64,000 bases of DNA from Saccostrea echinata (taxonomy: Eukaryota), in NCBI RefSeq assembly GCF_033153115.1, contig NW_026889750.1, positions 7,812,001 through 7,876,000 on the forward strand. Direction: 5' to 3'. Numbering within the stretch: the stretch's first letter is position 1; every line of letters begins with the position of its first letter. The notes under the pieces are model-generated. The model saw nothing but the letters and a program-made list of their open reading frames with translations. It ran no database searches and was not told the origin of the DNA. Position numbers and translations under genes: made by a program. Positions 7,484 through 8,096 of the stretch are shown in pieces.

Positions 7484-8096
7484 ATGGCATCTAATTTCCT
7501 GTTAAATGATCAACAAAACTTTACCCGAATGGGGGTAGCCTGCGTGGACGAGATAAGCTTAGTGTTGGAAGATATTCTAAAGACACAAATTGCACCAAGG
7601 GACTTGTATAGCAAAATATGTTCATGTTCGGAATTAACAAAAAGCTCACATAGCCTGAGGCCAGATCAAAAATCAGTTTGTTTCCTCTCTCCACCGTCTG
7701 TCCCAGACTATAGTAAGTTTGATGTTAGTTTACTTTATACTCTAATACGAAATCTGTGTCAATGCTTAAAACCATCGCAAGGATGGGGGGAAAACCCCTC
7801 TCCTACAGACACACAAATTGGAGATGACATTGAGCGTCTCAGATTGTTTAGAAACGAGATGTTTGGACATTTACCTTCATCAAGTGTTCCTGACCACGAA
7901 TTTATGTTACAATGGAAAGAGTTGGAAATTATTTCTAAGAGAGTCCAGACATTTGTAAGGTTACAAGGACACACAACTTCATGTAATTATGAGGAAAAAC
8001 TTGCAAACATAAAAAGATTTGAGTTTGGCTTCAAAGATAAGGAGAAGTATGAAATACTGCTAAAAGGATTACAGCAACTCTACATACAAACAGAAG
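7484..8096 (+). CDS. Exon encoding a DZIP3/hRUL138-like HEPN domain
   Basis: NFTRMG...L.PDQ....F...[18 protein letters not shown]...PSQGWG..P...[19 protein letters not shown].......D.EF...W is the signature of this HEPN family; donor GAAG|gtaaac, phase 1. Confidence 0.9.

Follow-up and report, generated by a model that had tools for sequence, protein, structure and literature searches.

RIG-I-like receptors (RLRs) cluster on dsRNA, and the OAS-RNase L pathway couples sensing to an RNase. In the available parts of the literature cited here, HEPN RNases are described as dimers whose shared active site is contributed by two motifs (PMC8266594), and the arginine and histidine of the motif are required for activity in several of these enzymes (PMC3710099). 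Bivalves and corals carry DZIP3-like HEPN domains by the hundreds, mostly on sensors with unknown ligands. In the pearl oyster, the motif is present in 194 of 202 proteins according to the accessible part of PMC9646362, in which the same catalytic inference was drawn as had been drawn for the locus described here. For oysters, PMC8195603 describes proteins that combine HEPN, Ig repeats, a DED and a TRADD-N domain of the NCOA6 clade. File 4 of its supplement, as far as available, records a HEPN domain and a TRADD-N domain of the DEDD2 clade joined to an RLR in Lingula (XP_013399073.1, with a CTD) and Exaiptasia (KXJ06110.1, helicase but no CTD), and none of the 11 RIG-I occurrences in that file is listed from oyster. 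CgiRLR6, a Pacific oyster receptor induced by OsHV-1, has 13 added exons with four Ig domains (PMC8998645), and HEPN has no occurrence in the available text or supplement of that paper. PMC8260672 and PMC8662601 mention HEPN, in the parts accessible, only together with NACHT. We found no oyster HEPN-RLR fusion in the open-access literature, including the part of the PMC8195603 supplement that was covered.

Here we analyse a 64,000-nucleotide stretch of the Saccostrea echinata genome (the window; contig NW_026889750.1, positions 7,812,001 to 7,876,000), in which a DZIP3-like HEPN exon probably heads an RLR gene.

Results

A DZIP3-like HEPN exon with a conserved motif

A preliminary description of the window had pointed to an intact HEPN motif of the DZIP3-like family, and both statements were borne out. 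RNEMFGH is the exact translation of positions 7850-7870 on the forward strand and forms residues 123-129 of the exon at 7484-8096, where it is directly preceded by DDIERLRLF and falls at a conserved alignment position. Exon 1 (7484-8096, forward strand, 613 nt) supplies the ATG and a HEPN domain of 204 aa, and a contig of run X1 covers 7465-7697. Alignment of this exon to the DZIP3-like profile, as the preliminary description had proposed, gave 80.3 bits against Pfam PF18738 (HEPN_DZIP3; E 1.6e-22), above the curated cut-off of 27 and placing the exon in this family.

The motif has the form R-N-x4-H (Rx5H). The bare R-x4-6-H pattern is weak evidence, as it arose in 44.6% of 20,000 shuffles of the exon 1 protein; RN-x3-5-H arose in 2.2% of 20,000 shuffles. 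RNEMFGH amounts to more than chance because it occupies a conserved position of the HEPN family. In an alignment of 23 sequences, R123, N124 and H129 are among 30 invariant columns, and in an alignment of 100 sequences 85/98, 88/99 and 90/98 rows, respectively, retain them, compared with 33/99, 15/92, 26/98 and 31/97 for the four spacer residues. A second acidic residue near the motif, often within Ex3[KR], is a further criterion for HEPN RNases; the candidates here are conserved columns defined by sequence alone, namely E117 (93/99), D114 and D115 (88/99 each) and D22 (65/95) in the 100-sequence alignment.

An alignment-based AlphaFold model of the exon (mean pLDDT 95.8) places R and N at the end of a helix spanning residues 112-128 and H129 as the first residue of the following loop, which is the position described for HEPN motifs in the available part of PMC3710099. 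Exon 1 therefore shows the typical HEPN RNase feature, an Rx4-6H whose R is followed by a polar residue and which lies at a helix end and the adjoining loop. Among 48,161 chains, the top structural match was Csm6 (4rgp; Z 8.6, rmsd 3.3, 115 residues aligned), a weak score for a helical bundle and thus only suggestive, and the named HEPN entries 2hsb (Z 6.3, rmsd 3.7, 100 aligned) and 3o10 (Z 6.3, rmsd 3.5, 99 aligned) ranked level with unrelated bundles. A Foldseek search with the HEPN model returned zero matches at E <= 0.001.

The preliminary description had named poor conservation of the motif among orthologues as an outcome that would speak against it; R, N and H are conserved, as RN-x3/4-H, in 22 of 22 close homologues and in all nine intact genomic paralogues examined. 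Among the best 150 cluster representatives of the wider family, two do not cover the site, and of the other 148 the motif, as Rx4-6H, is kept in 123 and missing from 25, one of which is a sequence cut at the motif. About one sixth of HEPN family members have therefore lost it, so non-catalytic roles exist. The intact motif is also the family norm, retained even in a frameshifted neighbouring copy that still reads RNDMFGH, and for this reason it is no proof of activity here. The earlier proposal that the domain is likely catalytic thus stands in part: the motif makes catalysis plausible and proves nothing about this copy, since its integrity follows the family rule (22/22, 123/148) and does not distinguish this domain, and yet a catalytically competent HEPN domain seems to us the likelier reading. 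The main interest of the locus lies in the partner sequences joined to the HEPN exon, which were absent from the preliminary description.

The exon chain from HEPN to the RIG-I CTD

On the forward strand, 23 exons with AG/GT ends join in frame and without a stop to encode HEPN, five Ig domains, a DED, a probable TRADD-N domain, a helicase and a CTD, with exons 2-12 all in phase 1-1. The visible coding length is 5,242 nt, free of internal stops and frameshifts, and the whole product would comprise about 1750 aa. Exons 2-5 (8195-9794, comprising 8195-8503, 8604-8873, 9052-9363 and 9510-9794) each encode one Ig-like domain according to profile matches and homologue alignment; exon 2 gives no Pfam match of its own and is Ig-like by alignment to Ig-bearing homologues. 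A fifth Ig-like domain is probably encoded by exon 6 (13951-14247), in frame and with AG/GT ends, for which the Ig_3 match is weak (E 0.0087). Exon 7 (15334-15381) is a 48-nt phase 1-1 linker that is also present, with its AG/GT ends, in the upstream cassette copy described below. The DED is encoded by exons 8-9 (18616-19147, visible as 18616-18718 and 18938-19147) and matches PF01335 with E 4e-7 at 30.6 bits, below the cut-off of 35.9; the start and acceptor of exon 8 fall in an N stretch and are thus unreadable. The cassette ends with exon 10 (19224-19508, 95 aa), a probable TRADD-N domain of the NCOA6 clade. This assignment draws on the Atlas, where the first match (0.92, 191 shared features) has PF13820 on 32% and PF20694 on 19% of its members, on a weak Pfam match (PF13820, only E 0.14, with no such match in two paralogous exons) and on the architecture published in the accessible part of PMC8195603.

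Exons 11-12 (20373-20887, comprising 20373-20432 and 20597-20887) form an RLR linker, as seen in spliced contigs, and it is here that clear homology to a CARD-bearing orthologue starts. Exons 13-22 (20975-31437) encode a RIG-I-like DExD/H helicase with Hel1, Hel2i, Hel2 and pincer, in which PF04851, PF00270, PF00271 and PF18119 all score over their cut-offs; a mammalian RIG-I matches with 32% identity over 672 columns. What we take to be helicase motifs I, II, III, IV, V and VI are all intact. Exon 23 (36139-36532) contributes the RIG-I CTD (PF11648, E 1e-21) with two zinc-binding CxxC pairs, CLKC and CKEC, and the stop codon. An acceptor near 26282 was rejected, as it gives stops, in favour of 26302, which is confirmed by the RefSeq protein.

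By its predicted helicase, Hel2i and CTD, the C-terminal part is a RIG-I-like receptor. The gene model contains no N-terminal tandem CARDs, nor is there a CARD remnant in window positions 1-21000, and the protein is therefore a non-canonical RLR and not of the RIG-I/MDA5 type. A membrane or secreted location found no support, the highest 19-residue hydropathy (1.55) lying inside the helicase.

Two decayed copies of one reverse-transcriptase element lie in introns of the gene (12446-13842 and 24873-26100, forward strand); the former matches RVT_1 with E 0.0067, and the corresponding intron of the upstream copy holds only its 3' end. Repeat or tandem-like stretches at 410-859, 2646-3035, 3604-4191, 10100-11150 and 22150-22890 consist of low-complexity open frames or have many transcript or locus matches. 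Further downstream, at 44200-48531 on the forward strand, Frizzled (E 5e-34) and NTR (E 6e-12) exons belong to an unrelated secreted frizzled-related protein gene.

Splicing and transcript evidence

The last cassette exon is spliced onwards to the helicase part. Contigs of run X4 carry GT-AG joints between exons 10 and 11, 11 and 12, and 12 and 13, with the listed pieces free of differences, and a contig of run X2 also has the joint between exons 11 and 12 (one contig per run, depth 2.7-4). Spliced contigs that are nearly identical were present in runs from two studies. The joints from exon 1 to 2 (run X1) and from exon 6 to 7 (run X2) are suggested by partial contigs combined with depth arithmetic, in which the depth seen on the adjacent exon is explained by the leftover letters of the two contigs. 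No run is recorded as RNA, and the spliced joints show that some contigs are RNA; one contig reads from exon 4 into the intron, so the runs, at depths of 3-5, may also hold unspliced RNA or DNA. Exon 8 is covered only by a diverged contig of run X5. Among the contigs listed, which were compared over two stretches each containing at most one of exons 7 and 8, none spans both exons; this does not speak against the predicted splice from exon 7 to exon 8 that would make one protein.

A contig of run X5 leaves exon 10 into other sequence and may represent a paralogous cassette with another partner; the peptide of this sequence had no match among the proteins compared.

HEPN and an RLR helicase were not found together in one database protein among 22 proteins, among the best 120 of 246, or among 24 long proteins scanned. 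If the fusion holds, split annotation hides genes of this kind.

Relatives and duplication of the cassette

HEPN, Ig repeats and DED occur here in the order of the oyster HEPN-Ig-DED-TRADD-N proteins. All 13 chosen homologues align to the DED-TRADD-N segment, 11 of them over both domains, and the aligned regions are internal parts of single HEPN-Ig-DED proteins, including proteins of 1210 aa and 865 aa from Logan contigs of 4.3 and 3.2 kb. A genome search with the HEPN exon yielded 264 candidates, of which 150 were scored; within these limits, 8 of 11 TRADD-N exon copies are preceded on their own strand by a HEPN exon at a distance of 7-23 kb. In the sister gene XP_061196858.1 (C54:68212950-68235845), a single polypeptide with the same exon order joins HEPN-Ig-DED-TRADD-N to nSTAND3-ankyrin, and its cassette is 45-55% identical to the one in the window. 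Partners of the cassette among homologues are nSTAND3-ankyrin, Roc-COR, NADAR and a second HEPN, with Roc-COR or NADAR found in other oysters; the first three are absent from the 20 HEPN+Ig rows in the available part of PMC8195603.

A single duplication block spans HEPN to TRADD-N (7484-20286), with about 90% nucleotide identity between its copies. The duplicate lies 38 kb upstream (C1:7781538-7790775), before another RLR that is likewise broken, and carries frameshifts in the HEPN and DED exons and a lost donor; the RLR body behind it is about 50% identical to the one in the window. Between the two cassettes, dS is 0.30 for the HEPN exon but declines to 0.02-0.06 for the 3' exons, which may reflect gene conversion.

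Selection and origin of the probable fusion

The evidence for selection, drawn from sequence comparison, is mixed. A dN/dS analysis, which the preliminary description had suggested for orthologues, was carried out on paralogues: the HEPN exon shows dN/dS of 0.10-0.33 against eight of nine intact paralogues, the ninth being saturated, at dS values of 1.1-3.6 that are near saturation and so reflect old family history. Against the broken copy, dN/dS is 0.42. Of the amino-acid changes separating these two copies, 19 fall on the window copy, 20 on the broken copy and 7 are unpolarised, so the window copy shows no sign of having been more strongly constrained since duplication.

The five closest RLRs among the matches listed, from S. 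cucullata (76% identity), Ostrea edulis (67%), Magallana gigas (58% and 57%) and Crassostrea virginica (57%), all carry CARDs, and clear homology to the S. cucullata receptor begins at exon 11. The simplest account would be an exchange, in this lineage, of the CARD exons for the cassette by phase 1-1 exon shuffling, and the HEPN-RLR fusion looks lineage-specific.

The gene is the last in a tandem RLR array (C1:7626370-7848529) that contains eight RIG-I CTD exons and in which the last helicase exons and CTD of two RLR genes are themselves tandem-duplicated (7662107/7666289 and 7803004/7807431). Another gene of this array (C1:7696916-7714200) encodes XP_061171499.1, a protein of 890 aa with a HEPN domain, an intact RNEVSGH and four CARD stretches, whose CARD region shares up to 65% identity with the corresponding region of RLR P0196, which belongs to the same array. 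CARD-bearing RLRs could recruit this HEPN-CARD4 protein in trans as a nuclease.

Discussion

We consider it probable that HEPN, five Ig domains, DED, TRADD-N and RLR belong to one gene. Two genes, HEPN-Ig5 followed by DED-TRADD-N-RLR with its own start, would leave the motif, as one of more than 150 paralogues, without a covalent link to the sensor. This is an unlikely arrangement in our judgement, but it agrees with the RefSeq model XP_061172835.1 (Saccostrea echinata, 1038 aa, DED-RLR), which begins three residues ahead of 18616, is 100% identical to the exon chain from 18616 onwards and covers only the DED-to-CTD part. DED-RLRs without HEPN are also a described type (PMC8998645, as far as available), HEPN-Ig proteins of 378-703 aa are present in databases and the exon 8 acceptor is hidden in the N stretch. 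However, the methionine matching the RefSeq start is internal in both sister cassettes, those of the C54 gene and of the upstream copy, where a phase-1 acceptor lies 8 nt before it. Exons 1-7 are moreover explained without a stop-bearing terminal exon, the entire HEPN-TRADD-N block was duplicated together and no separate HEPN-Ig RefSeq protein for the locus appeared among proteins of 358-2000 aa. The decay of the neighbouring cassette copy and its RLR, the symmetry of amino-acid change between the copies and the absence of the fusion from the relatives found would all suit a chimera that arose recently by accident in a tandem array with rapid turnover and is transcribed without selected function while decaying like the upstream copy. 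We regard such a chimera as quite improbable, given 5,242 visible coding bases without stop or frameshift, near-identical spliced contigs in runs of two studies and a cassette that is only 45-55% identical to its C54 sister and has therefore long been kept open; the same logic also arose in other phyla (PMC8195603 supplement file 4, as available).

A single functional gene could still carry HEPN as a passenger or RNA-binding domain, with DED and TRADD-N replacing the CARDs, recruiting caspase-8/FADD-like partners and killing the cell. DED-only RLRs exist (PMC8998645), Death-like plus TRADD-N is treated as a constant switch unit in PMC8195603, both in the parts available, 25 of 148 family representatives are without the motif and we found no activity assay of any DZIP3-like HEPN domain in the open-access literature. 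We nevertheless give this possibility little weight, because R, N and H are far better conserved than the spacer residues, the motif is kept in every one of the 22 close cassette homologues and such motifs are needed for activity in other HEPN RNases (PMC3710099, PMC8266594, accessible parts). RNase output and DED-TRADD-N signalling are in any case compatible and not exclusive.

Returning to an RNase joined to the receptor, we hypothesise, with about even confidence, that RNEMFGH is the predicted catalytic motif of a HEPN domain that heads an RLR of about 1750 aa and cuts RNA upon dsRNA-induced clustering. The CTD and helicase would bind dsRNA and several receptors would line up; HEPN domains on Ig tethers could then pair into an active RNase and cut nearby RNA, with DED-TRADD-N serving as a switch or regulator or adding a death signal. 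Such pairing is proposed because HEPN RNases need dimers and RLRs cluster on dsRNA, and the steps beyond domain anatomy, that is, proximity activation, the tether role of the Ig domains and the role of DED/TRADD-N, are suppositions from these known behaviours. In an infected cell, the output would be the breakdown of RNA from the virus or the host, as if OAS and RNase L were combined in one chain with no second messenger. More tentatively, and somewhat short of even confidence, the protein may be a self-contained sensor-nuclease RLR, in which CARD signalling gave way to a HEPN RNase cassette activated through clustering on dsRNA, and mark a third independent HEPN-RLR origin in marine invertebrates, in addition to which HEPN-CARD4 may act in trans.

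If this holds, RLRs can be direct effectors and not only signalling proteins, and animals would possess an antiviral RNase coupled directly to RLR filaments, a counterpart of OAS-RNase L and of sensor-HEPN defence in bacteria. As the sensor to which HEPN is likely joined here has a well-understood ligand class (dsRNA) and mode of activation, the question of a ligand-switched RNase becomes testable in vitro. A lineage-specific fusion may also be relevant to antiviral differences between farmed oysters.

The motif, the cassette and HEPN-RLR fusions elsewhere are already known; what is new is a likely independent oyster fusion under a split annotation. In profile, in Rx4-6H with N after R, in bivalve expansion and in its N-terminal place on immune sensors, the domain agrees with the DZIP3/hRUL138-like HEPN family (PF18738; PMC3710099, PMC9646362), for which the available parts of these papers give NACHT, TPR, ankyrin, CARD, DEATH, LRR and RING as partners and no RLR, unlike here. 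Its relatives mostly have a spacer of x5 (101/122), whereas Rx4H is commonest in the pearl oyster (PMC9646362, accessible part). With its probable TRADD-N domain, the N-terminal cassette would be that of the oyster HEPN+Ig(n)+DED+TRADD-N (NCOA6 clade) proteins, in the same order, but the C-termini in the 20 HEPN+Ig rows available from PMC8195603 are beta-propellers or Mab-21/cGAS+TPR, in contrast to the RLR helicase and CTD found here. Compared by table rows in the accessible part of that source, the Lingula and Exaiptasia proteins likewise place HEPN and TRADD-N before an RLR-type helicase in one polypeptide, but their TRADD-N belongs to the DEDD2 clade and no Ig or DED is listed; judged by these clade labels, the oyster fusion is likely independent of theirs. 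Lophotrochozoan RLRs with DED or Ig, such as CgiRLR6 (PMC8998645, as available), share the replacement of CARDs via exon gain, and CgiRLR6 may hide the same HEPN cassette, its 13 added exons resembling the 12 pre-helicase exons here. The bacterial HEPN effectors Csm6 and RnlA, as described in the accessible part of PMC8266594, and the OAS-RNase L pathway combine invader sensing with a dimer-activated HEPN/KEN RNase, a likeness in how they work and not one of membership. Unlike in those systems, no second messenger or antitoxin is evident here, and sensor and nuclease are predicted to form one chain.
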